Assembly (NCBI GenBank): GCA_964419225.1
Contig: CAYQPF010000035.1
Location: 1 to 36,014, forward strand
Origin: an uncultured Candidatus Cloacimonadota bacterium
GTDB lineage: Bacteria > Cloacimonadota > Cloacimonadia > Cloacimonadales > CAYQPF01
Reading direction: 5' to 3'
Length of the DNA stretch: 36,014 nt
Shown piece by piece: positions 5,516 to 34,092 of the stretch; the first letter of the stretch is position 1, and each line of letters starts with the position of its first letter. The position numbers and the translations under genes are program-made. The notes below the pieces were generated by a model. The model was not told the origin of the DNA. It worked only from the letters and a program-made list of their open reading frames with translations, and did no database searches.

Positions 5516-6670
5516 CTATGGTTTGACAAATCTGCCCAGGAAAAGAATAGAATTGGTTTCATTATCCATAATTGCAAAGAGGAATGGGTGATCTGCTTTG
5601 AAAGTAATAGGATCAGGTGGCAAGCATTTAGCCATATTAACAGCAGTAGCAGCTGCAGCTACTGTCTTTTTTTCATCAATTTTCAATGCAGTTTTATGGA
5701 TAACTTTTGATATAAAAAGTCTTTCGTCTGAAATTCCTGAGAAGTCTGCTGAACCAAATGCGGTAACTAATCCCATCTTAATAAGAGGTTTCTTAAGATC
5801 ATATTCCATTTCCAAATCAAATTTTGGCAAACTTAGATGCACAATACCAGGTATCCCAGAACGCTTGGGGAGAATCTGTGCATTTATTACGTTCTCTAAA
5901 GCCTGTAAACCATCATCATCTCTAGGTAAAAAAATATACAGAGATTTTGTTCTGTTTTTATAAGGTATCTCTATAAATTGATATTCATCCGTTTCATAGT
6001 GGAAATAATTTGAGCTATCTACCATAAAATTCATTTTTACAGTCTCATTTTTAGATACTTTAAAATCATCTAAATGTGTAAGTGTTGTGTCAAAGCTTTT
6101 GGCCCATTCTCCACTGAAATAAACAGCATTTGTGAGAACCAGACTTGTAGCCTTTGGATTCAGATCATCCGGTTTAATCAATTCCTTAATCATATTGTTT
6201 GTTTGGGATAAAACCCATTTATTTATTATTTCTGCTGACTCAACATTCTTTCCAAAGTTCAAGGATTCAGCCTTTGCCTGATAATTGACATTCAATAATT
6301 TTCTGTAGTCAGGTTTGATCTTAAAACCATAATTGAACCAGATAGCATTAGCAATTGTAAGCTGATTATCTTTATCTGTGGAATTACTCAACTTCATCAA
6401 TTGCTGTCCAAGTCTTTCAGAGGTAAAATGCTTGTTAAGATACAGAACTTTTTCGAATTCTTTTCTGGTTTGTTTTCTGGCACCTTCAGCAGTCATTAAC
6501 AGAGCTATATCAATACTCAGAGGCGAGAAGAAAAGGTTTTTGCCATCCTCTTTCAACTCATGATACAAATCAAAGGAAAACCTGTTCAGAGAGCTACCCT
6601 GAGAAATTGTTTGAGCAAATAAACTGCAACTCATTGTTATTAAAATCAGGCCTAAAATTTGAAACCTCAT
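5516..6670 (-). CDS. Secreted serpin (serine protease inhibitor)
   Basis: N-terminal signal peptide. Serpin hinge/RCL reads 'EKKTVAAAATAVNMAKCLPPDPITFKADHPFLFAI' and aligns to the alpha1-antitrypsin RCL and 'PF(L/V)F' C-terminal block. SD GGAGG lies 5 nt upstream of the ATG. Confidence 0.85.
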   Translation of the reverse strand: MRFQILGLILITMSCSLFAQTISQGSSLNRFSFDLYHELKEDGKNLFFSPLSIDIALLMTAEGARKQTRKEFEKVLYLNKHFTSERLGQQLMKLSNSTDKDNQLTIANAIWFNYGFKIKPDYRKLLNVNYQAKAESLNFGKNVESAEIINKWVLSQTNNMIKELIKPDDLNPKATSLVLTNAVYFSGEWAKSFDTTLTHLDDFKVSKNETVKMNFMVDSSNYFHYETDEYQFIEIPYKNRTKSLYIFLPRDDDGLQALENVINAQILPKRSGIPGIVHLSLPKFDLEMEYDLKKPLIKMGLVTAFGSADFSGISDERLFISKVIHKTALKIDEKKTVAAAATAVNMAKCLPPDPITFKADHPFLFAIMDNETNSILFLGRFVKP

Positions 6671-11122: not shown

Positions 11123-14100
11123 TCATTCTTCTAATCTTACCTTACAGGCAAGGGCTTTTTCCGGCTGTCCTGCTTTTTCATACAGATCACATAAATGTTT
11201 ACCAACCGTAGTTGTATAGAGATGATCCGGGCCAAAGTATTTCTCACAGATAGCTAAGGCTCTGATATACAAAGGTTCGGCTTCTGTATATTTCCCTTGA
11301 GATTTATATATTCCTGCTAAATTGCTCAATGAACTCGCGGTTTTTAAATGTTCAGGGCCAAGTATTTTTTCGCTTATAGCCAAAGCTTTCAGGTTAAATA
11401 TCTCAGCTTGAGCAAATTTGCTTTGAATCTTAAACAAATCTGCCAGACTATTGAGTAAACTCACAGTATCTGGATGCTCTTCACCCAGAGTTTTTTCCTG
11501 GATCATTAAAGCTCTTTGATAAAGCGGTTCGGCTTTCTCATAAACTCCTTGTTTTCTGTACAGATCTCCCAGATAGTTAAGTGTTTTCGCAGTATCAGGA
11601 TGTTCCATTCCCAGAATCCTCTCCCTGATTTCCAATACTTTGAGGTATAGGTGTTCAGCCTGATCAAATTTACTCTGATTGTGATAAAACACAGCCAGAT
11701 TATTCAGGGATAATGCTGTACTGGGATGTTCTTCACCCAGAACCGTTTTCTGAATGTTCAAAGCTCTTAAATAGCTAATTTCAACCTCATCATATTTACC
11801 CTGTATATCATATAAATTTGCTAAATTGTTCAGTGTGGCTGCTGTTTCATGATGATCAACTCCCAATGTCTCTTCTCTTATTTTTAAACATCTTAGATAA
11901 TAAATCTCAGATAACTCAAATTTACCTTGCTCAGTATATAAGTGCGATAAATTATTAAGCATAGTCGCTGTTTCAGGATGCTCAGCACCAAAGACTCTTT
12001 CGGAAATTTTTAAGGTTTTCAGATACATTGACTCTGCCAAATCTAATTTGCCCTGATTCGTATATAAAATAGCCAAATTATTGATCACTCCTCCAGTATT
12101 TGGATGTTCTGAACCAAGCTTTTCTTCTAATATTTCTAAAGCCTGTAAGAACATAGATTCACCCAGGTCATATCTTCCTTGATTTACATACAGGAGTCCC
12201 AGATAATTAATAGTTAAGGCTGAGTTCACATGCCTTAATCCAAAAAGTTTCTTTTGAGTTTCCAAAGTACTCAGATAAAGGACTTCTGCTTGATCATATT
12301 TTGTCTGACAAACATACAAATATGCCAGATTTATAGCTGTTCGGGCTGTTTCCTGATGCTCGGATCCATAGACCTTCTTAAAAATATCCAAAGACTTTAA
12401 AAACAACAACTCTGATTGATCATATTTACCTTGACTCATATATAATGTAGCCAGATTATTCAGAGAAAGTGCTGTATCTGGATGATCTGAACCTAAAACT
12501 TTTTCTCTAATATTAAAGGCTGTCTGGAATAAGAGTTCAGCACGGTCATTTTGACCCAACACATAAAACATACACGCCAAAAGATTAATTGAACTTGCAG
12601 TATCCGGATGTTCTTCTCCGAGTATTCGTTTATGGATTTCCAAAGCTCTATTCAAATTTGTTTCAGCTTTAGTAAAATCATATTTTTCTGCAAAATAGTC
12701 TCCAGCTTTAGAGTAATATTGTGCAGCCTTAATCTCCTCACCCGCACATAAATAATGATTGGCGATGTCTTCAGCATTCGAATCAAGCTCTTTTGCAAAT
12801 AAACGTTCCATAGCTTGAGCCGCAAGCAAATGCAATTGTTGCAAACGTTGAGTAAGCATACGCTGATATGCAATATCCTTAATCAGCACATGTGAAAATA
12901 TGTAACTGATCTCATCAAAATTTGTCCAAACCCTCCTGCTTTTTCCAAAACTTAGATCTTCTTCAATTTCCATGCCCAACATATTAGCAAGCAATTCGGT
13001 ATTGAACTCCAATCCCAAAACACAGGCATTTTGCAGAGTTTGACGAACTCTTTCTGTTAGGTTATCAATGCGGTTACCAATAATGTCGGCAATACCGAAA
13101 GTGCTTATCAGAGTTGTATCCACAGTAATATTGTAAAATTGATCAAATTGGTTATTCTCCTTTAAATAAGCTGTCAATTGCTCAATAAAAAATGGATTTC
13201 CTTCTGACCGGGTTATTATTAATTCTAATGTTGTCCTGGGTATATTGCTATGATTCAATAACTGGCTTATCAAGTTTTTACTACCTACTGGTGTTAAATG
13301 GTTCAGATCCATAACTTCCTTCCTGAAACCTGGCAAACCTAAATCTACCTGACTGCCATCTTCATTATAACGGCAAGCACAAATGATGTGTACAAAAGGA
13401 ACTGAGTTTTCACCTAAAGCTCTAAAATATTCCAGTGTTTTTGTCTCTATCCACTGAGGATCATCCAAATGTATGATAATTGGTTTCTGCTCTGCTAAGG
13501 CTTGTAAAAAAGAAACAAAAGCATGCTTAATCTGCTCTGATCTTTTTTCCGGGGGCAAAAAACTGAATATCGAATGCTCCCACTCATAACCAAGCAGCGA
13601 AGCAATAAAAGATTCTATGCGCAAGAGTTCCTGATCTTCCTGAGCTAGTTCAGACCATGTCCTGTGGAATTTTTCCAGGTTACGCTTAATAGACTGTAAA
13701 TGTTCAGTACCAAAGTAGCTGTGAAGAATCTGTTTTACAGGTTCAAGAGATTTTTTACTGACCGGATCACAAAAAGTAAAGAACTTATGAAAGCAGGAAT
13801 CTGGAAGACCTTTTATGGCTTCAGATATGAGTCGGCTTTTACCAACTCCGGCTTCTCCTGAAACATAAACAACAGAGCTGTCCTTGGCCTTCAAGAAGCT
13901 TTGTAAAACCGATATTTCTACATCCCGCCCGGTAAATTCACTTTCGGACAAATTTAATTTCTCTGATCTGAAACCCTCCAACCGGTAAACATTGACTGGG
14001 GCAGAAAACCCTTTAAGCTCAATGAATCCAATATTCGAAAATATGTAACGATGATGCAAATCTCGTTGTAACCAAGTATCAGTAATGACCCTTCCATCTG

Positions 14101-15106
14101 CAGACTTGCTCAATAAGCGTGCAACCAGATTAACTGCTGCTCCCACTGCCGTGTATTCACGAGTATGCTTTACCCCGACAAAACCTGCATAAACATTACC
14201 ACTGGCAATACTCATAAGCAGTTTAGGAATTGTGTTAGCAACATCAAGAGCAAAACGGCAAATCCGGTCCAGGGTATTTCCCTCAGATTTAGGTAACCCA
14301 AAGAGGATAAAGCCCTCCAGTCCTTTGCCTGTCCCGTCCAGTCTGGTCAAAAAACCACTATAAGCATCCAGTTTATCATGCAGAACAGCCAAAGTTTGTT
14401 CCCACTCCTCAACAGCTATCTGACTTAGATCTACAAAGCAAAAGGCTGCATCACGGATTTCATTAGCCGGCTGCTCATTTAAAAGACGTTTATGACAGAA
14501 TTTCTCATAAGAAGCGTGGGAGAAAGGATAATCCAAACAAAGATCAGGATAAATCGTTTCTGTTTCAACTGCATTAATCCTGTCAATTTGCTCCAAAACT
14601 CCTTTTGACCAGGCGACAGCTTGTTTCGCAACTGAAAGTTGGGAGATCTCCTGTAACGGTTCGCCATAGAAAACATATTCATTTTGATACTCATTTTGAA
14701 AGATCTGCCAATTAATCATTCCGGAACTAATTGTTAACCTTACGGCTATCTTAAAATCACCGCAGGCAGAAGAAAATATTCTATGTTTCGCGAAATATTG
14801 TTCTATCTTCTTTACAACATTAACAATTCTTTCGGGTTTTCCCTCAGGAAACAAAGTACAAAAACCATCTCCGGCAAACACACTGACGAAACCGCCATTT
14901 TTCTCTACAAGATTTAAAGGATATGTAAATATTTCTTCCAGAAAACGGCTTAATTCTTCGGCTCCTCTTTTACCATGTTTACGAAATTCATTGCTGATAA
15001 CGGTAAAATCTGCTATATCAAAAAACAAAACAAAACTTTCGAAACTTCCCGAATATCTGTCATTTTCAAAACGGTTAAGAAAAAAAGGCGGTATATATCT
15101 AATCAT
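11123..15106 (-). CDS. Adenylate/guanylate cyclase (tandem class-III cyclase-homology domains) - AAA/STAND NTPase - TPR-repeat signalling protein
   Basis: Cyclase blocks read 'FFDIADFTVISNEF...FAGDGFCTLF', with a second block 'FCFVDLSQIA...'. Walker A reads 'VSGEAGVGKSRL'. At least 12 TPR_10/12-type repeats carry the recurring 'EHPDTA..LNNLA.LY..QGKY..AE' unit. The ATG at 15106 is preferred over the GTG at 15127 because an AGGGAG SD lies 6 nt upstream of it. Confidence 0.8.
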   Translation of the reverse strand: MIRYIPPFFLNRFENDRYSGSFESFVLFFDIADFTVISNEFRKHGKRGAEELSRFLEEIFTYPLNLVEKNGGFVSVFAGDGFCTLFPEGKPERIVNVVKKIEQYFAKHRIFSSACGDFKIAVRLTISSGMINWQIFQNEYQNEYVFYGEPLQEISQLSVAKQAVAWSKGVLEQIDRINAVETETIYPDLCLDYPFSHASYEKFCHKRLLNEQPANEIRDAAFCFVDLSQIAVEEWEQTLAVLHDKLDAYSGFLTRLDGTGKGLEGFILFGLPKSEGNTLDRICRFALDVANTIPKLLMSIASGNVYAGFVGVKHTREYTAVGAAVNLVARLLSKSADGRVITDTWLQRDLHHRYIFSNIGFIELKGFSAPVNVYRLEGFRSEKLNLSESEFTGRDVEISVLQSFLKAKDSSVVYVSGEAGVGKSRLISEAIKGLPDSCFHKFFTFCDPVSKKSLEPVKQILHSYFGTEHLQSIKRNLEKFHRTWSELAQEDQELLRIESFIASLLGYEWEHSIFSFLPPEKRSEQIKHAFVSFLQALAEQKPIIIHLDDPQWIETKTLEYFRALGENSVPFVHIICACRYNEDGSQVDLGLPGFRKEVMDLNHLTPVGSKNLISQLLNHSNIPRTTLELIITRSEGNPFFIEQLTAYLKENNQFDQFYNITVDTTLISTFGIADIIGNRIDNLTERVRQTLQNACVLGLEFNTELLANMLGMEIEEDLSFGKSRRVWTNFDEISYIFSHVLIKDIAYQRMLTQRLQQLHLLAAQAMERLFAKELDSNAEDIANHYLCAGEEIKAAQYYSKAGDYFAEKYDFTKAETNLNRALEIHKRILGEEHPDTASSINLLACMFYVLGQNDRAELLFQTAFNIREKVLGSDHPDTALSLNNLATLYMSQGKYDQSELLFLKSLDIFKKVYGSEHQETARTAINLAYLYVCQTKYDQAEVLYLSTLETQKKLFGLRHVNSALTINYLGLLYVNQGRYDLGESMFLQALEILEEKLGSEHPNTGGVINNLAILYTNQGKLDLAESMYLKTLKISERVFGAEHPETATMLNNLSHLYTEQGKFELSEIYYLRCLKIREETLGVDHHETAATLNNLANLYDIQGKYDEVEISYLRALNIQKTVLGEEHPSTALSLNNLAVFYHNQSKFDQAEHLYLKVLEIRERILGMEHPDTAKTLNYLGDLYRKQGVYEKAEPLYQRALMIQEKTLGEEHPDTVSLLNSLADLFKIQSKFAQAEIFNLKALAISEKILGPEHLKTASSLSNLAGIYKSQGKYTEAEPLYIRALAICEKYFGPDHLYTTTVGKHLCDLYEKAGQPEKALACKVRLEE

Positions 15107-15133
15107 AATTAACTCCCTACTTCTCACGGAAGA

Positions 15134-18422: not shown

Positions 18423-20155
18423 TTTTTCTTTCCTTTACCGGCAGGAACGGTATTGGTATTCTCAATTTCCGGAGTGGTTACCACCGGAGCTTCTGCTGCT
18501 TTCAAAGCAGTTTCCAGAATTTTAATTTGATTTAAAAGTTCAAAATAGTTTTTATAATTTTTGAATTGTTCCAGCATCTTACCCGATTCAGGATCAGTTT
18601 GATTCATTTGAGACTGTAGATTTTGATACTTCTGCAGAACAGGTGGAAATTTCTGGTACAGTTGATTAAGCGGATTTTTCAGCAGAGGAACAGCATTAAT
18701 CTTTTCAAAATAAATCATGTCAGGATACAACAAAGAAAGATCTTTCAGAGTGTTCGTTTTTGCTTTGAGCTCTTTATTGAATTTCGGCATTAAAAAGGTT
18801 GTTAAATATTGCTGACACAGATTAAGACTATCCGGTACAAAAAGAACATTTACCGGATTTGCACTCCCCGTAAAAATATTATCTAACTGCCCATATAGAA
18901 GACCAGGGCTGTCAACAGATCCATAGAATATGATATTTACCCCATTAAATGGCTTTTCATTAATGCTTCGTAAAAGATTATTTACGGTAAAGGCAGACCT
19001 GTCATTCTTCAAAACAGTAGCTGTTTCAGTGACAAAAAGATCTCCACAGATAATCAGATTCAGGGTGTAATCTAAATTTGTTTCCATCTTGGATATCCCG
19101 GACAAATAGGTCTCCAAGGTCGCAGGACTTTCATATGAGTAAAGAATATTGGCATTTGCCTTCTGTCCTATTCCAGTCCATTGATTGGAAAACAGATCAT
19201 AAAAGAAGTTTGCCTTTTCTTCATATGCTTTGTTACCGTTAAAAATATAAGTATAGTTATTAGTATCCTGCTTCAAATCCATCCAGTCCTGAGGATAGCC
19301 CTGAACAATATTCTGCAGATAATAATTCAAACTATCTTCTAATGCATAGAAATCATTGTTTTTGGCAAAAGAAGAGTAAAAAAGCGAAAACGTATCTGTT
19401 CTTACTATTTCATAAATATCTTTACAGGAAAAAATAAAGTTGTTCAATCCGGGTTTAAGAATCAGGTTTTTCTTGAAGATTTTTTCCTTTGTTAAAGGCA
19501 ATTTCTCATTATTAAGAATAACCTCCTTCAAGGAGTATTTATGATTCACAGTAAAAGTCAGTTCTGCTGTAGGGGGAGTAAAACTTAAGATACTCGAGTT
19601 GAAGGTAACTTTTGGAGTTGGAAGATTGTTTTTGAATTTATCAGGGAAGTCGGTCATTAGACATTCTTTAATCAGAGAAGACATTTTGGAATTGGTTTGC
19701 TGAGAAAAGAATTGATAGTAAGCAAACAACATTTTGTAAATATCCGGCGAACGTCGATCAATTTTATGGATCAGATTCTGATAATATTTATCCTGATATT
19801 TTGTAAGCGAAAGCAAAGTTAAAAGGGAATCTGATGGATTTATTAAATAGGCCTGTGACAGATAATTGTAGGCCAAATCACTCTTTTCACACTGAAAATA
19901 AATAACACCCTTTGCCTTTAAAAAAACCGGTTGAGGTACAACATTATCCTCAAAATTACTCAGCTCCTGACTTGCCATGACCGGCATAAAATTGGCCAGA
20001 TAACTCTCCAGCAATTCTATTCGCAAAGCTATACTCTTAGGATTATAAAAGACTTTCTGATACAAACTGTCTAAAGAAGTCGCACTATTTTCAGCAGTCA
20101 ATAAGGTTAAAACTGAAAACAGTATTAATAATAGAATTATCTTTTTCATACTCAA
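18419..20155 (-). CDS. Secreted hypothetical protein with an N-terminal TPR-like region
   Basis: ORF of 578 aa. Signal peptide 'MKKIILLLILFSVLTLLTA'. The C-terminus is Lys-rich. ATGA overlap with the MoxR stop. Confidence 0.5.
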   Translation of the reverse strand: MSMKKIILLLILFSVLTLLTAENSATSLDSLYQKVFYNPKSIALRIELLESYLANFMPVMASQELSNFEDNVVPQPVFLKAKGVIYFQCEKSDLAYNYLSQAYLINPSDSLLTLLSLTKYQDKYYQNLIHKIDRRSPDIYKMLFAYYQFFSQQTNSKMSSLIKECLMTDFPDKFKNNLPTPKVTFNSSILSFTPPTAELTFTVNHKYSLKEVILNNEKLPLTKEKIFKKNLILKPGLNNFIFSCKDIYEIVRTDTFSLFYSSFAKNNDFYALEDSLNYYLQNIVQGYPQDWMDLKQDTNNYTYIFNGNKAYEEKANFFYDLFSNQWTGIGQKANANILYSYESPATLETYLSGISKMETNLDYTLNLIICGDLFVTETATVLKNDRSAFTVNNLLRSINEKPFNGVNIIFYGSVDSPGLLYGQLDNIFTGSANPVNVLFVPDSLNLCQQYLTTFLMPKFNKELKAKTNTLKDLSLLYPDMIYFEKINAVPLLKNPLNQLYQKFPPVLQKYQNLQSQMNQTDPESGKMLEQFKNYKNYFELLNQIKILETALKAAEAPVVTTPEIENTNTVPAGKGKKK

Positions 20156-21144
20156 CCAAGGGTTTTTAGTATTTTTTGGACAATATCCTGAGATTTGTAT
20201 CCCTCTGCTTCTGCAGCAAAAGAGAGAAGCAGTCTGTGTTGCAGAACGATCTCAGCAGAGCTGATCACATCTTCAACCGATGGTGTAAGTCGATTATCCA
20301 TGGCAGCTTTGGCTTTGGCAGCCAGAACCAGGAATTGAGAAGCTCGAGGCCCGGCACCCCAGTTAACCATACTCTTAACAAAGTCCGGTGCTTCAGGATT
20401 TGAAGGGCGGGTTTTTCTTACCAATTTAACAATAAAATCAAGAACATGCTCACTCACAGGAATATTCCGGATTGATTCCTGAATTTTTACAATGTGGGCG
20501 GCATCTGTTATCTTTCTCAATTCTGTTTTTTCTGAACTTGTAGTTTTTTCAGCTATCATTTTCTCAGTATCATAAGAAGGATAATCAATATAAATCTTAA
20601 ACATAAATCTGTCTAACTGAGCTTCGGGTAAAGGGTATGTACCCTCCTGCTCGATTGGATTCTGGGTCGCTAATACTAAAAATGGTTGATCCAAATTATA
20701 TGTCTGATTTCCTGCTGTAACCTGATACTCCTGCATAGCCTGCAATAGTGCAGACTGCGTCTTGGGAGGTGTTCTGTTGATTTCATCTGCCAGAATAATA
20801 TTAGCAAAGACAGGACCCTTGATGTATTCAAAATACCGTTTACCATCAGATTTATCTTCAGCTAAAATATCTGTACCTGTAATATCAGATGGCATTAAAT
20901 CCGGGGTAAACTGAATTCTGCTAAACTTTAGATCCATTACTCGAGCTAAGGATGATACTAAAAGTGTCTTAGCCAAGCCAGGGACTCCTTCCAACAAACA
21001 ATGCCCGTTACAAAACAAGGCACAAAGGAAATCCTCTATTACTTTTTCCTGTCCGTAAACAGACTTATTTATTTCCGAAATTATCTTTTTCTTAGTATCC
21101 TGTACTGTTTCCAGCACTTTTACGAAATCAGCGTTACTTTTCAT
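20152..21144 (-). CDS. moxR: MoxR-family AAA+ ATPase
   Basis: Walker A reads 'GVPGLAKTLLVSSLARVM'. Walker B/sensor reads 'ILADEINRTPPKTQSALLQAMQE'. The ORF is 330 aa, typical MoxR size. Confidence 0.9.
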   Translation of the reverse strand: MKSNADFVKVLETVQDTKKKIISEINKSVYGQEKVIEDFLCALFCNGHCLLEGVPGLAKTLLVSSLARVMDLKFSRIQFTPDLMPSDITGTDILAEDKSDGKRYFEYIKGPVFANIILADEINRTPPKTQSALLQAMQEYQVTAGNQTYNLDQPFLVLATQNPIEQEGTYPLPEAQLDRFMFKIYIDYPSYDTEKMIAEKTTSSEKTELRKITDAAHIVKIQESIRNIPVSEHVLDFIVKLVRKTRPSNPEAPDFVKSMVNWGAGPRASQFLVLAAKAKAAMDNRLTPSVEDVISSAEIVLQHRLLLSFAAEAEGYKSQDIVQKILKTLG

Positions 21145-22141
21145 TTTCTATTGCTCCTGTTTCTATAACATCAATAATTTTATAACCGGAATAACTGATG
21201 GCAATAAATCCCACCAGAATAATCAAACCGCCTGTCAATAAATGGGCAAAAGCCATGACAGCACTCACCATCGTTTTATCAAGTCCCAGACCTGCTGAGA
21301 ATACAATAATCATCACAAGTTCATTACTCCCGATTTGAGCAGGAGGATGTGGTATAACATAAGACAAATATATCAGGGTATATCCGAATAAAATCATAAA
21401 ATAATTGATCTCCTGATTAAATGCCTTGAACATAAACAGGAAATAAACACTATCAATACTGACAGCTAATAGTGTAAGAATAAGTAACTCCGGCAGAAGA
21501 ACGTAATGATTTTTGAAAATTGCAACACCTTCGACAAACAATTGCACAATATCTTCGTATTTTTTTTCGTATTTATAGGGGATATATTTACTCCAACGGT
21601 GGAGAAAAGCAATAATTTCATCTTTCTTTATTGCAGATAAAATCAAAATAGTAAATCCAACAAAAAATACAGCTATCAACATAATAATCAGAAATAATAA
21701 ATAATCCGATACATGTACATTAAGAAAAGGTAATAAAATTAAGACCAGAAAAATTGAAACTGAATCAAACATCTTGTCAATGAAAACAGAAGGTAGTGTT
21801 TTCGAAATAGGAACACCCGTAGTCTTTTTAACAAAAAAACTCTTTGCCAACTCGCCTGCTCGAACAGGGATCATATAATTTATAAAATTCCCTGCCATCC
21901 AAATCAAAAAGGTACGACCTGCACCCATCTTTAAATTCACAGAGAGAAGTTTATTCCAGCGTAAGGAGCGTACAAAGTATGATAATAAATACAAAAATGC
22001 TGCAATCACGACATATGATAGTTTTACACTCCGGAAATATGGCACAATATCTTTTACATCAATAAATTTAGACCAGATACCCAGAAAAAGAACACCGATA
22101 ATTAATCCCAGTATTACTTTCCAAATATTACTTTTTTTCAT
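21134..22141 (-). CDS. Polytopic membrane protein, flippase-like/UPF0104 (lysyl-phosphatidylglycerol-synthase transmembrane-region-like) family
   Basis: ORF of 335 aa with about 8 hydrophobic segments. The N-terminus 'MKKSNIWKVILGLIIGVLFLGIWSKFIDVKDI...SLRWNKLL' is typical of this family. It overlaps both neighbours. Confidence 0.55.
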   Translation of the reverse strand: MKKSNIWKVILGLIIGVLFLGIWSKFIDVKDIVPYFRSVKLSYVVIAAFLYLLSYFVRSLRWNKLLSVNLKMGAGRTFLIWMAGNFINYMIPVRAGELAKSFFVKKTTGVPISKTLPSVFIDKMFDSVSIFLVLILLPFLNVHVSDYLLFLIIMLIAVFFVGFTILILSAIKKDEIIAFLHRWSKYIPYKYEKKYEDIVQLFVEGVAIFKNHYVLLPELLILTLLAVSIDSVYFLFMFKAFNQEINYFMILFGYTLIYLSYVIPHPPAQIGSNELVMIIVFSAGLGLDKTMVSAVMAFAHLLTGGLIILVGFIAISYSGYKIIDVIETGAIENEK

Positions 22142-23237
22142 AGTTTTCAGGATTAGAAAATCCCTTTACTCCGATTAGCTTTTTAGGACAAATATCGTAA
22201 CAGTGCAAACAACGCAAGCATTTTTTACGATCAAATGTAAACTTTGCAGATATTGCTCCAACTGGGCATTCTTCAAGACATTTTCGACAATCCTGACAGA
22301 AGGAAATAGGTTCCAAAATCGGCCTCGTCCCAAAATAGCCTGTCTTGTAAAGAAAAGTATTAAAATGTACGGAAAATAATTTTTCGAACACAAAATCAAT
22401 TATATACAGACATCTGTAGGCAAACTGATAACCCTTACTTTGCTTTGGCAGTTCAAATTTATGTCTTTCAATATTCCCTTCGATTTCAATTGGTACATTA
22501 TTCCGAGCTAAGTTTATATAGGAAATATCTTTATAATCTACACCCATGAAATCGCAGGCAATTTTATCAGTTGCAAAGGGATCTAATCCTGCTATCAGAG
22601 TCATAGTCTTTTTCAAATTTCCATAAACCGCCCCATCACCTTCCATGGAATTGATAGCATCGATAATGGTTAAGGTTGGCTTTATAACCTTGTTCAGATC
22701 AGCCACAGCCGCATGAATCCCTAAACTATGCATCAATTTACGAGTGTCATGATGACAAAAACCCATCAGATTCTTCATCCCCAGAGTAACCTGGGTTATA
22801 ACGTGCGTTTTCAAAATCGGCACATTTACAATCTTATTTTCCAAAACTATTCTTGGGACTTTAATCTTTTTCAGTACAAAAGAATTGGGAACAGGTATGG
22901 TTATAAAATCCTTCTCTTCAGGAATAAATACTTCTATATCGTGTTTTTCTGCAAATTCCCAGATCTTCAAATAATTGAACACTTCGCGGGTATCAAATTC
23001 CATTCCCGGCATCTCACAGATTATAGGCTTACATCCCAGTGTCTGAAGTTTCTGCACGATAGCTTCCAGTAATCCAAGATTGGTCGTGGCACCCTTGGAA
23101 TTCTCTCTGGGTGCTACAAAATTCGGCTTTAGGATAACCCTTTCTCCACTCTTGAATAATTGAGTCCATTCTAATTTATCCAGAAAAGGATATATGTCCA
23201 GTTCATCCTTAAGCTTCTGTATATAAACCTTATTCAT
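22128..23237 (-). CDS. DUF362 domain protein with a C-terminal 2x[4Fe-4S] ferredoxin module
   Basis: Two CxxCxxCxxxCP motifs read 'CQDCRKCLEECP' and 'CLRCLHCYDICP'. The start is placed at the internal 'MNKVYIQ' ATG, because the longer ORF would overlap the upstream gene by about 100 nt. Confidence 0.65.
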   Translation of the reverse strand: MNKVYIQKLKDELDIYPFLDKLEWTQLFKSGERVILKPNFVAPRENSKGATTNLGLLEAIVQKLQTLGCKPIICEMPGMEFDTREVFNYLKIWEFAEKHDIEVFIPEEKDFITIPVPNSFVLKKIKVPRIVLENKIVNVPILKTHVITQVTLGMKNLMGFCHHDTRKLMHSLGIHAAVADLNKVIKPTLTIIDAINSMEGDGAVYGNLKKTMTLIAGLDPFATDKIACDFMGVDYKDISYINLARNNVPIEIEGNIERHKFELPKQSKGYQFAYRCLYIIDFVFEKLFSVHFNTFLYKTGYFGTRPILEPISFCQDCRKCLEECPVGAISAKFTFDRKKCLRCLHCYDICPKKLIGVKGFSNPENYEKK

Positions 23238-23241
23238 TGTC

Positions 23242-24072
23242 TCAATTGGGAACAAAAACATAGTATTTATGATGAGCCCAGAATTGCTTGAAGAAGTCCG
23301 GTGCTGCTTTTTCCAACCAAAAATACTGAAGCATTTTATCTTCAAAAAGAGGATCTTTGTCCCGATAAAAATCCATAATCGTTACTGCACTCTTAGGTTC
23401 ATCACTTGGGGGTAACTTAATCCCGAACTTAGCCACAAACTCCTCTTTAGGCATCCCGATATCCGGCCAGGGTGGACAATCAATGAAATTACTCAATATC
23501 AAATTCCAGCCCATACTTTTCATTATTGGTTTAAAACACCCAGGTGAAATATATTCTTCCTTTAAGGTCGATTGTAACTCTTTCTTCCCAAAATATTTCT
23601 GGGACAAATAACCTAAACCTGTTGTATTCGGAACACAAAGCACAATAACTTTCTTTGTAACCCTGTTCAGTTCTGCTAAAAATTGCGTAATATCTTGTAC
23701 AAACCAAAGTGCAGAGAAATTCCAGGAAAAATCTATACTTTTGTCAGGTAAATTAATATTATCGTAGTTTGTGTTATATTGAAAATTGGCTGAAAGATTT
23801 GTCTTCTTCCATTCTTCTTCCATTAAACTAATTCTTTCTTCATCATGATCAAGCAACGTAATATTCATTCCCTTCAGAGCTAAATTCATACTATTGATTC
23901 AACTCAGACCTGTAAAACCAAAACAAGGTGCCTCTAAGACAGACTCTACCTTGAAATTGCGGACAATCTTATTCAAAAAATGATTAATTATTACTCTTTC
24001 ATAGGAAGAGCCTAGACCCTCATCAGGATCAGAAAAATAGTTTTTCCAGATATTAACAATTGGAATGGCCAT
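23242..24072 (-). pseudogene. Class I SAM-dependent methyltransferase interrupted by a single in-frame TGA at 23899-23901. It is a nonsense-mutation pseudogene, an assembly error, or recoded.
   Basis: ORFs 23899..24129 and 23242..23889 are in the same frame, separated only by TGA-ATC-AAT-AGT. The joined sequence '...VLEAPCFGFTGLS*INSMNLALKGMNITLLDHDEE' reads like a methyltransferase motif I/post-I region. Confidence 0.6.
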
Positions 24073-25033
24073 TTTGCTCCTTATACCAATCAATAACTCT
24101 CTGAAAATCAGGTATTGTATGGCATTCATCTAACTTCAAATCAGCGTATGTATCCTCGGTATTGTAATCCCAATCCCGTGAGATCAATTCTATTCTGCTG
24201 GTCCACAATTCGTTCTTTAAAGCCTTGAAAAAAGTTTCACTCAAGCGAAAACAACTGTCAGATAACATAATATTATAATTCTTTTTCTTTAAGCCATCTC
24301 TGATAAAAGTGAACAAGTCTTTCAATATAACAGGTTCTTTATCTGCTAAATTATATGCTTTACCGACAGGAAGATCAAGTTCGCAAGCATTGACAAACGC
24401 CTGTGTTATCAAATCCACATTCGCCAAATGAATCTTAACCTCACTCATAGGCAGGGCCATCATATATTTATCTGTCAGTTTTGTCAGAGTATAAGGAAAT
24501 CCATAATCTCCTTCACCATATGTAATCGAAGGTCTCAAAACCACTGCATTCAAGCCAAGTTTCACCTTCTCCTGAATCATTTTTTCACATTCTATCTTAG
24601 TGATATGATAATAATTATCCCGTTTGAACGGAGTTGAATCATTCGCCGGGACGCTTTGCGGTATCGCTCCATACACACCGACTGAAGAGCAGAATATGAA
24701 TTTACTGTTGTTCTTCAGAGCGTTATCAAGCAATTTACCGGTTGCTTTGATATTGGCCAGAAAGTACGAAGACATGGGGAACCTTCTCCCGCCTCGCAAA
24801 GCACCAATATGCATAATAATGTCGAAGGAATTCTGATTAAGGTATTTCTCCAAACCAAAAACATTCTCCAAATTGATTTCTACCAATTGAATCTTATCTC
24901 TGTATTCTGCAATTTTCTGCAAATCAGAACCAGGTCGGACAAGCCCTGTTATCTCATAATCTTTTTCTATTAATTGCTTCAGAATGTGATGTCCGATAAA
25001 GCCATTGATCCCTGTTACTAATATTTTTTTCAT
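24053..25033 (-). CDS. NAD-dependent epimerase/dehydratase (extended SDR) family protein
   Basis: The Rossmann motif 'KILVTGINGFIGHHIL' and the YxxxK region are present. The start is set at 'MKKILVTG', adjacent to the cpsB stop, and the 24-codon upstream extension is rejected. Confidence 0.8.
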   Translation of the reverse strand: MKKILVTGINGFIGHHILKQLIEKDYEITGLVRPGSDLQKIAEYRDKIQLVEINLENVFGLEKYLNQNSFDIIMHIGALRGGRRFPMSSYFLANIKATGKLLDNALKNNSKFIFCSSVGVYGAIPQSVPANDSTPFKRDNYYHITKIECEKMIQEKVKLGLNAVVLRPSITYGEGDYGFPYTLTKLTDKYMMALPMSEVKIHLANVDLITQAFVNACELDLPVGKAYNLADKEPVILKDLFTFIRDGLKKKNYNIMLSDSCFRLSETFFKALKNELWTSRIELISRDWDYNTEDTYADLKLDECHTIPDFQRVIDWYKEQNGHSNC

Positions 25034-25034
25034 T

Positions 25035-25820
25035 CTATAATCCAAATAATTTCTTAAATAATGATTTTTTTGCTTCCGGCTGCTTCTTAAAGCGTTCCGC
25101 TCCAAAATAATTTACTTTTTCGTTTTTCAGCATCTTCATGGGATTGATTTCGGAAAGTAATTTAGCAGTATGATCATTGGTTTCACTCCGAATAGCTTCT
25201 ACTGCATCAACATAACTATAATCCTGTGTATGACAGTGAGTATCAGAACCTAAAAAATGTGCATATCCGTTGTAGATCATTTCCCAGGCAGTATCCTGAA
25301 TCTTCTTGCCATAACCACCCAACAGGCTTCCGGTATTGATCTGCATATAAATATTCCGATGAATCAGATCTTCTACTGCATAGGGATTATTAATAAATTC
25401 TGTATATCTTTCAGGATGAGCCAAAATCGGTTTATAACCCTGTTTTACCAGAATATAATAAATATCGAGCAAACCGTTGGGAAAACCATTCATACTGGTT
25501 TCCATAAGAATATAATTTGTATTATTTAAGGTCAGGTTTTCCTTGATAACATCCAAGTGAATATCTTCACTAAGAAATATTTCTGCACCACGGTAAAGTT
25601 CAATATTTATATTCTCTCTTTGTACTGCATCTTTTAATATCTGAAATTTCACATTTTGAATTTCCGCTGTATTATCATAAAATCCCTTCATGTAATGGGG
25701 AGTCAAAATTACACCTTTAATTCCCTCCTCACTCATAAACTTCAAATAATCTAAAGATGTATCCAGATCCGGAGATCCGTCATCAACATCAAACATAATG
25801 TGAGAATGTATATCAATCAT
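25035..25820 (-). CDS. CpsB/CapC-type PHP-family protein-tyrosine phosphatase (capsular polysaccharide biosynthesis)
   Basis: Diagnostic N-terminus 'MIDIHSHIMFDVDDGSPDL'. Further His/Asp metal ligands are seen in 'LTPHYM', 'LAHPERY' and 'LGSDTH'. The ORF is 261 aa. Confidence 0.85.
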   Translation of the reverse strand: MIDIHSHIMFDVDDGSPDLDTSLDYLKFMSEEGIKGVILTPHYMKGFYDNTAEIQNVKFQILKDAVQRENINIELYRGAEIFLSEDIHLDVIKENLTLNNTNYILMETSMNGFPNGLLDIYYILVKQGYKPILAHPERYTEFINNPYAVEDLIHRNIYMQINTGSLLGGYGKKIQDTAWEMIYNGYAHFLGSDTHCHTQDYSYVDAVEAIRSETNDHTAKLLSEINPMKMLKNEKVNYFGAERFKKQPEAKKSLFKKLFGL

Positions 25821-26572
25821 ATGCCATCCTTACTAATTTGTATTGCCTGAGCAAATTCACTGATTAATGCTTTATCCGGAGTGTTCTCGAAAACAGTCCC
25901 AATCACCACAAAATCTGCTCCGGCTCTTGCTTTACAAGCCGCTTCCTCAGGTGTTTTTATGCCACCCCCGACAATAAGAGGGATTTCAATATTATTTTTT
26001 ACAACGGTAATCATTTCTTCAGGCACAGAGTTTTTAGCTCCGCTTCCGGCTTCCAAATAAACCATTCGCATGCCTAAATACTGCCCGGCTAAAGCATGCG
26101 TCACCGCAATATCAATTTTCTTTCTGGGTATGGGAATACTGTGACTCATGTACTGCACCGAAGTCAAACTGTTGGATTCGATCAACAAATAAGCAGTACC
26201 AATACTTTCCAGATTATACTTTTTAATCAAAGGAGCAGAACGAACCTGTTCTCCTACTAATAATTCCGGATTCCTGCTGCTCAGCATACTTAATAAGAGT
26301 ATTGCATCAGCATATGGAGAAACGAAATTAAACAATCCTGGGAAGATTATTAATGGTATTTTTACCTGCTTTTTTATTTCTCTTAAACACGATTCAAAAT
26401 TATCATGGAGCATCATACTACCACCTATGAGAAGTGCATCTGCCCCACTTTCTTCGCAATCCAAGGCAAAATCTATAGCAGTTCCCTCGCTATGCTTATC
26501 CGGATCGATAAGACAGAAAAACCCAGTTCTTTTCCGGGCAATTTCTAAGAGTTTCTCATATGTTTTTATCAT
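25817..26572 (-). CDS. PcrB/GGGP-synthase family (geranylgeranyl- or heptaprenyl-glyceryl phosphate synthase) TIM-barrel prenyltransferase
   Basis: The ORF is 251 aa with 'FFCLIDPDKHS', 'LLIGGSMM' and a C-terminal 'LIVGGGIKTPEEAACKARAGADFVVIGTVFE' phosphate-binding block. An ATGA overlap joins it to cpsB. Confidence 0.8.
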   Translation of the reverse strand: MIKTYEKLLEIARKRTGFFCLIDPDKHSEGTAIDFALDCEESGADALLIGGSMMLHDNFESCLREIKKQVKIPLIIFPGLFNFVSPYADAILLLSMLSSRNPELLVGEQVRSAPLIKKYNLESIGTAYLLIESNSLTSVQYMSHSIPIPRKKIDIAVTHALAGQYLGMRMVYLEAGSGAKNSVPEEMITVVKNNIEIPLIVGGGIKTPEEAACKARAGADFVVIGTVFENTPDKALISEFAQAIQISKDGI

Positions 26573-26573
26573 A

Positions 26574-27404
26574 TTATTTACCTATCCACATTATTATCAG
26601 GATGAAAAACATATTCAGTTTCATCAAATTAGAGATATAATTCAAATTTTTCTTGGTAACATTTCTGTTCAAAAATAAGTAAGAGATCAACAAAGGCAAA
26701 ATGGTAAAAATATTGAGCAAATTAAAAGTCAGCATCGATATCATTCCATGCCAAAATAGAGAAAAAACACCAATACCCATCGCTAATATCAGCGTAAATG
26801 TAATCGAAAAAGTCCAAGTCTTTCCCATTACAATTGGTATAGTTTTTGCCCCCTGACTCATATCACCTTCCACATCTTCCGTATCCTTGATGATTTCCCG
26901 GATCAATGTATATGTAAAAGCAATAAATGAAATTGCCAGCGCATAACTGACATTATCATTGGCTATTGCCCCGTAAAAGAATGTCGAAGCTGCAGAATAT
27001 GCTATCAACAAATTACCCAACAAAAATGTCTTTTTCAAATATCCTGCATAGACCACTAACAGCAATGTATTCACAACTGCAATTATGATACACCATTTAT
27101 GCCAGGTCAAAACACTCAGAAAAAAACCGGTAATCATCAGAATCCAGGCATACTTTAAAGCCGTACCTGGTGAGATTTTACCAGAAGGTAAAACCCTGTC
27201 TTTTCTGTTTATCTTATCGATTTCCAGATCATAATAATCATTAAGTACATAACCACCTGCTGCTATAAAAGTGGCAGCTAAAGCACTTAAAATTATGACC
27301 CTGATATCAAAAACAGTTGCCTTGATCATTGCCCCATACACTACACATAAAGCAGTAAAAAAGCAATTGAAAGGTCTGATTATCTGCAGAAATGCTTTTA
27401 TCAC
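26574..27404 (-). CDS. UbiA-family prenyltransferase, DGGGP-synthase-like (digeranylgeranylglyceryl phosphate synthase homologue)
   Basis: Eight or nine TM helices. Asp-rich motif 'NDYYDLEIDKINRKDR'. It sits immediately upstream of the PcrB/GGGPS gene, which is the archaeal ether-lipid gene order. Confidence 0.7.
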   Translation of the reverse strand: MIKAFLQIIRPFNCFFTALCVVYGAMIKATVFDIRVIILSALAATFIAAGGYVLNDYYDLEIDKINRKDRVLPSGKISPGTALKYAWILMITGFFLSVLTWHKWCIIIAVVNTLLLVVYAGYLKKTFLLGNLLIAYSAASTFFYGAIANDNVSYALAISFIAFTYTLIREIIKDTEDVEGDMSQGAKTIPIVMGKTWTFSITFTLILAMGIGVFSLFWHGMISMLTFNLLNIFTILPLLISYLFLNRNVTKKNLNYISNLMKLNMFFILIIMWIGK

Positions 27405-28292
27405 TTAAGGTAATCTGTCCTTGATCATGGCGACAAATTCAACCAGTATCTCATTATTATCCATATTCTTGATCATTTTATAGGAATCTTCCAGGAGCTT
27501 TTCTGCTGTCTTGCGTGCCTTATCCAAACCCAATAAGGAAGAATATGTTATCTTATTATTCCGATAATCTTCACCTGGTTCTCTGCCTAAATATTCAAAT
27601 TCACCGATTTCATCCAATATGTCATCTATAACCTGATAAGCTAAACCTAAATTCAATGCATAATTCCCAATTGTGATGGTTATATTATCTTCCGCATCCG
27701 CCATTATGCAGGCCAAATCTGTGGCTGCCTGAAGCAGTGCACCCGTCTTCTTCAAATGAACATATCTCAACACATTGATTCTGACATTCTTGTCCGTCGA
27801 TAAAATATCAACAGCCTGACCACCTATCATTCCCCGTGTTGATACTGCCCGGCACATGGTATTGATGCAGCGTACTGCTTTTTCAGGTTCCTGAACCAAG
27901 GTAAGCATCTCAAATGCTTTGGTGATTAATGCATCCCCGGCAAGTATTGCCGTTGCGGGATCAAACTTCTTGTGGCAGGTCGGCTGTCCTCTTCTCTCAT
28001 CTGAATTATCTACACTCGGTAAATCATCATGAATCAATGAAGCTGTATGGATCATCTCCAATGCACAACCAACAGGCAGAACAGGATTCAGGACATTAGC
28101 ATTCTTCTTGCCTTTCAACATCTCATAAACAGCAAAAAAAAGAATTGGTCTAAGCCTCTTCCCTTCAGAAAATACAGAATATCGCATAGCCTCAAAAAGA
28201 CTTGACGGATTCTCTTTTACCGGAGTCAGATAACTGTCCAGAGCGTCTTCCAATATTTTTTTCCTACTATCAAAGTATTTTTGGATTAACAA
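27405..28292 (-). CDS. Polyprenyl diphosphate synthase (GGPP/FPP synthase, trans-IPPS)
   Basis: FARM 'LIHDDLPSVDNSDERRG' and SARM 'YQVIDDILDE' are present. The ORF is 295 aa. Confidence 0.85.
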   Translation of the reverse strand: MLIQKYFDSRKKILEDALDSYLTPVKENPSSLFEAMRYSVFSEGKRLRPILFFAVYEMLKGKKNANVLNPVLPVGCALEMIHTASLIHDDLPSVDNSDERRGQPTCHKKFDPATAILAGDALITKAFEMLTLVQEPEKAVRCINTMCRAVSTRGMIGGQAVDILSTDKNVRINVLRYVHLKKTGALLQAATDLACIMADAEDNITITIGNYALNLGLAYQVIDDILDEIGEFEYLGREPGEDYRNNKITYSSLLGLDKARKTAEKLLEDSYKMIKNMDNNEILVEFVAMIKDRLP

Positions 28293-33669: not shown

Positions 33670-34092
33670 CTAATTTATAACTAACATGTGGGAGAGTTCA
33701 ATCGCTCTTGCACCAGTCTGCTTTGCCCATTTAGTAGTCAGCATCTGGTTAGCAGCTTTTTCAAACTCTCCAGATTTGACAAAACTAAGAGTGGTCTTAA
33801 ACTGCAATAGTCCTTTAATTCCAAGGTTGAAACACATATCCAGAAGCACCAGTTTACGGTTTTCTGAGAGGTTGTTGTAGATATCAGGAATGCTGGAAAT
33901 AAGCTCCAACTCACATCGCAAAATATCATTTTGAAGCAGTTCTTTGGCTTCCTGCTTTGAAATCCCTCAGTCTTCAAGATTACGACTGACTCCGATGGTC
34001 AGTTTACCTGATGTGCAGCGATACGGCTTAAGTCTCAAACCTTCATGCCTGATGAGTTGCTCTTTGACTCTAACTAATAAGCTCTGTTCCAT
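33670..34092 (-). pseudogene. T4-type (GH24) phage lysozyme gene interrupted by one in-frame TGA at 33967-33969
   Basis: The minus-strand frame reads 'MEQSLLVRVKEQLIRHEGLRLKPYRCTSGKLTIGVSRNLED*GISKQEAKELL...NRKLVLLDMCFNLG...KWAKQTGARAIEL'. This aligns along its whole length to T4 lysozyme ('[25 protein letters not shown]', 'RRCALINMVFQMG', 'SRWYNQTPNRAKRV'). GGAG lies 7 nt upstream of the ATG. Confidence 0.7.

Follow-up and report, generated by a model that had tools for sequence, protein, structure and literature searches.

A single in-frame TGA at an invariant glycine codon interrupts a methyltransferase gene in a Cloacimonadota lipid operon

The class-I SAM-dependent methyltransferase gene of a Cloacimonadota lipid operon is interrupted by one in-frame TGA, which stands at a codon that encodes glycine in every orthologous locus compared. 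The interruption is an ordinary single-base nonsense lesion; a real mutation of recent date is its most likely origin, and an error in the consensus a possible one. With a probability of roughly 0.55, the gene is a real and very recent nonsense allele, that is, a fresh pseudogene. The T is taken to be present in the cells rather than to have been introduced during assembly, and the truncated products are presumed to be inactive. The features of the gene, its operon, and a second TGA-broken gene are listed in Table 1; the window denotes the whole 36,014-nucleotide stretch of DNA that was analysed.

Table 1. Position and state of the methyltransferase gene, its operon, and the second broken gene in the window.
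Feature	Position	Strand	Description	Mismatches at conserved columns	Median end difference to orthologues (residues)
Lipid operon	20152..28292	-	polyprenyl synthase, UbiA, PcrB (GGGP synthase family), CpsB/CapC, NAD epimerase, methyltransferase, DUF362/4Fe-4S, LPG_synthase_TM, MoxR AAA		
Class-I SAM-dependent methyltransferase gene	23242..24072	-	276 codons, interrupted at codon 58		+2 (n = 81)
In-frame TGA	23899..23901	-	replaces invariant glycine codon 58 (GFTGLS-G-INS), loop after strand beta-1		
AAGGAG Shine-Dalgarno-like hexamer	24077..24082	-	4 nt from the true ATG; direct reading		
Internal ATG, Met62	23887..23889	-	database-annotated start of the 215-aa C-terminal ORF (P0001)		
Natural TGA stop of the methyltransferase	23242..23244	-	end agrees with orthologues		
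PcrB				3	-2 (n = 49)
CpsB				0	
Epimerase				1	
LPG_synthase_TM				0	
MoxR				1	0 (n = 54)
Phage-type lysozyme remnant	33670..34092	-	140 codons; Pfam Phage_lysozyme; in-frame TGA 33969-33967		

An earlier note on this DNA had described the gene as two pieces in the same frame that are separated by a TGA and three codons. Translation of the minus strand from 24129 to 23242 bears this out, as it yields a single continuous frame with one internal stop, and direct reading agrees with the positions and the kind of break that the note had given. The codons ATC AAT AGT lie between the TGA and the internal ATG, whose methionine (Met62) is conserved across most orthologues. Direct reading of the sequence upstream of this internal ATG revealed no Shine-Dalgarno-like motif. 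The true start of the methyltransferase is the ATG at 24072-24070, because all orthologues begin with MAIPI; the ATG at 24129 opens the mechanical ORF only and is not the start of the gene. Over 20 nt (24053-24072), the epimerase gene runs with its 3′ end into the start of the methyltransferase. At the other end, the DUF362/4Fe-4S gene begins at 23237, 4 nt past the methyltransferase stop.

The joined protein of 276 residues has 563 matches among database proteins. The best full-length match (E = 1e-107, 60% identity, 99% coverage) crosses the stop, and the joined frame is therefore not a product of chance. The only match at 100% in the database search is the 215-aa C-terminal piece, which comes from the window’s own contig. 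The other matches among the best 120 of the 563 are single proteins of 275 to 290 aa, mostly from Cloacimonadota MAGs. In Pfam, the joined protein scores 33.5 bits with Methyltransf_11 (PF08241; gathering cut-off 21.2, E = 6.5e-8). With a domain match above the cut-off and a best match that spans the stop, the earlier reading of the joined frame as one continuous class-I SAM methyltransferase holds, and the family assignment of the gene stands despite the TGA. The NCBIfam matches are weak and generic (PmtA, MduS, TehB, BioC) and lie far under their cut-offs; the best of them, itself weak, is the phospholipid N-methyltransferase PmtA.

The fold was examined on the closest orthologue (P0002, 60% identical), whose AlphaFold model (pLDDT 88.7, pTM 0.89) takes on a class-I methyltransferase fold. 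It is this model, and not the window protein, that displays the Rossmann-like alpha/beta fold. Residue 58 falls within the loop that connects beta-1 (residues 44-47) with the helix formed by residues 62-66. A Foldseek search with the P0002 model retrieved 635 PDB chains at E ≤ 0.001, and almost all of the PDB matches listed for the model, again not for the window protein, are SAM methyltransferases or close structural relatives. The glycine-rich loop after beta-1 and the acidic residue that ends beta-2 in the P0002 model are shared with the class-I SAM methyltransferases of the Methyltransf_11/25 type. Structural neighbours include YcgJ, RebM/AtmM, phosphoethanolamine N-methyltransferases, and prenyl-diphosphate methyltransferases such as the geranyl-diphosphate C-methyltransferases. 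The family differs from the solved class-I methyltransferases in its identity of only 11-14% to them and in its own N-terminal helix and C-terminal extension (PPWPDIGM and WAHH motifs). The window copy lacks an intact glycine-rich motif I loop, as the TGA falls on Gly58 of FGFTGLSGINS and cuts the encoded product short. The family is specific to lipid operons of the Cloacimonadota/Calditrichota type. Orthologues that are 49-51% identical are also found in MAGs labelled Armatimonadota and Calditrichota (L038, L054, L081); either the family is not strictly confined to Cloacimonadota or these bins are mislabelled.

In the protein alignment, the stop is placed opposite a glycine in all 25 orthologues (FGFTGLS-G-INS), and among 119 database proteins the column is at least 97% glycine. 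The comparison was extended to 82 orthologous genomic loci; GTDB species representatives contributed 80 of these and ENA metagenomes the other two. Glycine is present at the site in 82 of 82, and each locus gives a single uninterrupted match. Split orthologues were found neither in these 82 loci nor among the best 120 of the 563 database matches. The earlier note had proposed the comparison with orthologues as a check and had named naturally separate genes as the case that would overturn it; with single genes in all 82 loci, this case is removed. Relative to its uninterrupted orthologues, the window copy carries a premature stop.

The codon itself could be read by a strict motif match in 75 of the 82 loci (the other seven also encode glycine), and it is GGN throughout (GGA 31, GGT 25, GGG 13, GGC 6). 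The nearest relative has GGA ATCAATAGTATG where the window has TGA ATCAATAGTATG, with the 12 downstream bases identical. From GGN at all loci read and GGA in the nearest relative, one G-to-T change follows, which affects the first position of GGA on the coding strand and corresponds to C-to-A on the plus strand at position 23901. When the glycine is restored, the protein shows no mismatch at any of the 53 columns with a conservation of 97% or more among the 80 genome orthologues, and neither further lesions nor relaxed constraint was found there. Against the 119 database proteins, differences occur at 2 of 67 columns conserved to at least 97%, namely the stop and one L-to-V exchange. Judged from these alignments, the stop is the sole defect of the methyltransferase. 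The lack of any further mismatch at the conserved columns of the genome orthologues marks the lesion as recent.

TGA serves as a regular terminator in this DNA. It ends 11-12 of the 29 plausible genes in the window, six of them as ATGA stop/start overlaps, and is the commonest or second-commonest terminator. The ends of TGA-terminated genes were compared with those of their orthologues, which use TAA, TAG, or TGA, and the median differences amount to two residues at most for the PcrB, MoxR, and methyltransferase genes (Table 1). The earlier statement that TGA is used as a stop elsewhere is thereby confirmed. As the TGA-ended genes stop where their orthologues stop, a genome-wide reassignment of TGA by code 25 or code 4 is excluded. 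The likeness to code 25, in which UGA encodes glycine in Gracilibacteria and Absconditabacteria (SR1), lies in a UGA exactly where every orthologue has glycine. However, the defining feature of that code, a UGA that is not a stop, is missing from the window, which holds one UGA at a glycine site in 36 kb. The hosts of code 25 moreover belong to Patescibacteriota, whereas the organism of the window belongs to Cloacimonadota. Altogether, the 36 kb contain two in-frame UGA sites, of which one is at glycine and the other at a column that varies among Cys, Arg, and Asn; there is no such site at tryptophan.

The genes of the operon are intact except for the methyltransferase, and its neighbours have full-length Pfam coverage. 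Their mismatches at conserved columns (Table 1) are mostly conservative and within the range of other genomes. The neighbours are normally conserved, and the contig is therefore not generally noisy; a generally noisy assembly is not supported. These data agree with the earlier observation that all neighbours are intact. When the operon proteins of the window were used as tblastn queries against 81 other loci, about 440 orthologous gene copies proved free of internal stops. The exception set aside from this count is a locus of Ca. Cloacimonas sp. AnMBR.bin134 (L079, JAXGIH010000095.1, 330-5135), in which the epimerase, LPG_synthase_TM, and MoxR genes together have about 22 in-frame stops, with all three stop codons represented, and the methyltransferase is intact. 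This locus represents either a low-quality assembly or a decaying operon.

The operon as such is conserved in Cloacimonadota, where polyprenyl synthase, UbiA, and PcrB are combined with PHP-type CpsB/CapC, an epimerase, the methyltransferase, LPG_synthase_TM, and a MoxR ATPase. The methyltransferase holds the same position in the operons of two relatives (L001, 555-7594, and L002). PcrB and UbiA are archaeal-type ether-lipid gene families that are discussed by Villanueva et al. (2020, PMC7852524), whose text, when searched, mentions neither a methyltransferase nor an operon or gene cluster. The DUF362 + 2x[4Fe-4S] gene (22128-23237, minus strand) is located between the methyltransferase and LPG_synthase_TM. 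As a homologue occurs within the fetched flanks of only two of the 82 orthologous loci, this gene, which lies immediately 3′ of the broken methyltransferase, appears to have entered the operon as a lineage-specific insertion. As listed, the epimerase ORF (TTG at 25105, 350 aa) has about 26 more residues at the N terminus than the orthologues of 323 aa, and the real start probably lies further downstream than this TTG. Downstream of MoxR, a protein of 1,334 aa is encoded (11123-15127, minus strand), in which a weak adenylate/guanylate-cyclase domain is combined with a STAND-type ATPase (AAA_16) and a long array of TPRs; it is followed by a vWA/TPR protein and two proteins without a Pfam match. 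A full-length bacterial serpin gene (Pfam Serpin, E = 9e-108) is encoded at 5516-6670 on the minus strand.

A second gene in the window, a phage-type lysozyme, had been described as broken in the same way. The TGA at 33969-33967 is real, but the likeness ends there, as this stop stands in a variable column, other lesions are present in the gene, and its genomic context is lost. The TGA aligns with a Cys/Arg/Asn column that reads TGT in one relative (L003) and TGC in another (L084), so that the stop is a third-position change (TGT/TGC to TGA). In addition, the remnant has a serine where glycine is nearly invariant (G36S), and its last five residues are replaced; nucleotide homology with a relative that is 80% identical ends five codons before the stop codon. 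In the same two relatives (L003, 6001-12290; L084, 5001-10423), the 140-aa lysozyme heads a conserved phage-like cluster with three small ORFs, Phage_portal, Peptidase_S78_2, and more. These phage-like neighbours are absent from the window, where the lysozyme is followed by about 540 bp without a recognisable gene. The extra lesions and the lost phage-like neighbours characterize the lysozyme as a decaying remnant. Among the best 120 of about 2,400 matches, the lysozymes are 64-82% identical to the window copy and derive mostly from Cloacimonadota, which suggests that the cluster is a phylum-wide, possibly domesticated phage-like or GTA-like element.

A shared cause for the two TGAs is not supported, as the ancestral codons (GGA and TGT/TGC), the codon positions, and the implied residues are different and the lysozyme carries other lesions. 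Two broken genes among about 30 in the window, compared with none in about 440 orthologue copies, are above the usual rate, and one of the two is explained by the loss of the phage-like element. With several independent lesions in one remnant, the lysozyme also demonstrates that genuine gene decay occurs in this genome.

For the TGA in the methyltransferase, the earlier note had left open a nonsense mutation, a sequencing or assembly error, and a rare recoding event. The first two still stand, but recoding is disfavoured by the glycine column, the lack of a hairpin, and the genes that TGA terminates. The insertion of selenocysteine, which would make the product a selenoprotein methyltransferase, is effectively refuted. 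It could draw on an in-frame TGA within an otherwise intact gene and on a very weak and generic match to the selenoprotein-methyltransferase model MduS (19.6 bits against a cut-off of 380), which is a similarity at the domain level only. An in-frame UGA in a conserved enzyme gene is also what likens the site to bacterial selenoprotein genes, in which a UGA is combined with a SECIS hairpin and depends on SelB. In contrast to those genes, the homologues have glycine at the column and never cysteine or selenocysteine, and the downstream hairpin is missing. The search for a SECIS-like hairpin that the note had suggested came out negative. The 67 nt from the methyltransferase TGA fold with a minimum free energy of -5.2 kcal/mol, which is worse than that of shuffled sequences (mean -8.55 kcal/mol, z = +1.35), and the lysozyme TGA site is unremarkable as well (z = -0.15). 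Rfam gave no match in the window at gathering thresholds and only chance-level matches around the site at E ≤ 10.

A tolerated or programmed read-through of UGA, by which a Gly-UCA suppressor tRNA or a leaky near-cognate tRNA would supply some full-length enzyme, is very improbable. A candidate for such decoding is the tRNA-Trp(CCA) with a 4-bp anticodon stem, which a 2026 study (PMC13092985) reports as prominent in Cloacimonadota and shows to increase the read-through of UGA in E. coli; according to the same study, about 0.3% of the genomes with the standard code have suppressor tRNAs. The window has two in-frame TGAs but neither TAA nor TAG in frame within its about 30 genes, and this, with none in the roughly 440 orthologue copies, would fit this explanation, as would the otherwise perfect conservation of the methyltransferase at 53 columns and the need for glycine as in code 25. 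On the other hand, TGA is a heavily used terminator that ends genes where their orthologues end, and near-cognate decoding would put tryptophan at the invariant glycine of the SAM loop, where function is unlikely. The two TGA sites also disagree on the amino acid, the lysozyme has other lesions, no tRNA gene is present in the 36-kb window, and no stimulatory structure follows the TGA. That the lineage tolerates in-frame UGA through partial read-through (by a glycine suppressor tRNA or the 4-bp-stem tRNA-Trp) and still makes the methyltransferase at a low level is very improbable; if it were true, two in-frame TGAs in 36 kb would indicate that a bacterium with the standard code has begun to decode UGA ambiguously. 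Even less credence is due to a naturally split enzyme, in which the N-terminal peptide of 57 aa and a re-initiated protein of 215 aa would assemble noncovalently. Termination-reinitiation is physically possible with an ATG 9 nt after the TGA, and the 215-aa ORF is listed as a protein in the database annotation. However, the best 120 of the 563 homologues and the 82 loci are all unsplit, the arrangement deletes G58, I59, N60, and S61 of the invariant cofactor loop, and the internal ATG has no Shine-Dalgarno-like motif before it.

The explanation that deserves the most weight beside a real mutation is a sequencing, consensus, or assembly error, in which the organism has GGA and an intact gene and the T at 23901 is a miscalled or minority base; this is possible, at odds clearly worse than even. 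The change concerns a single base in a gene that shows no other decay and is intact in 82 of 82 other loci, and the absence of internal stops from about 440 operon gene copies indicates that natural inactivation is rare, which fits an artefact equally well. G-to-T (C-to-A) changes are moreover a classic artefact of oxidative damage to libraries. The database searches found no independent assembly that confirms the base. The best match among GTDB representatives is only 58% identical, and JGI metagenomes contained no match to a 61-mer across the site in which the variable base was set to N. The protein cluster of the 215-aa piece has a single member, and look-ups of contigs for the exact proteins P0001 and P0121 returned nothing on record. 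An error is opposed by the rest of the operon, where odd substitutions at conserved sites are not in excess. Frameshifts or other broken genes are not visible among the about 28 other genes, so the apparent error rate is low. A random substitution would furthermore create a stop codon only about 4% of the time, as estimated from the codon table. The clean surroundings, another genuine pseudogene on the contig, and the rarity with which consensus errors make stops favor the real allele.

If the nonsense allele is real, a single G-to-T would have turned the glycine codon 58 (GGA) into TGA. Since TGA is a normal terminator of the genome, translation would end at this codon with 57 residues made, and the break would fall in the glycine-rich SAM-binding loop that joins beta-1 to helix A. 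The 215-aa downstream ORF lacks beta-1 and the invariant G-I-N-S, and would not be expected to bind SAM. The gene would then be a loss-of-function allele of very recent origin, and this allele would be fixed or dominant in the Cloacimonadota population that was sampled. It resembles ordinary nonsense-mutation (“internal stop”) pseudogenes, as one in-frame stop interrupts what is an intact single ORF in all relatives and the stop codon is a normal terminator of the genome. It differs from them in the absence of any secondary decay, so that the lesion is either extremely young or not real.

Lesions of this kind are well understood, and as a discovery the present one matters very little. It provides a clean negative example for recoding screens, as an in-frame TGA at a conserved glycine does not on its own indicate code 25. 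The annotated 215-aa “protein” is a fragment, and it calls for treatment as a pseudogene or for a check of the reads. With a real mutation, the organism would be a natural knock-out that lacks an intact copy of a methyltransferase which the polyprenyl/UbiA/PcrB (archaeal-type ether-lipid) operon of Cloacimonadota otherwise always contains. Should lipid data exist for the sample as well, such a knock-out could help to assign the function of the enzyme.
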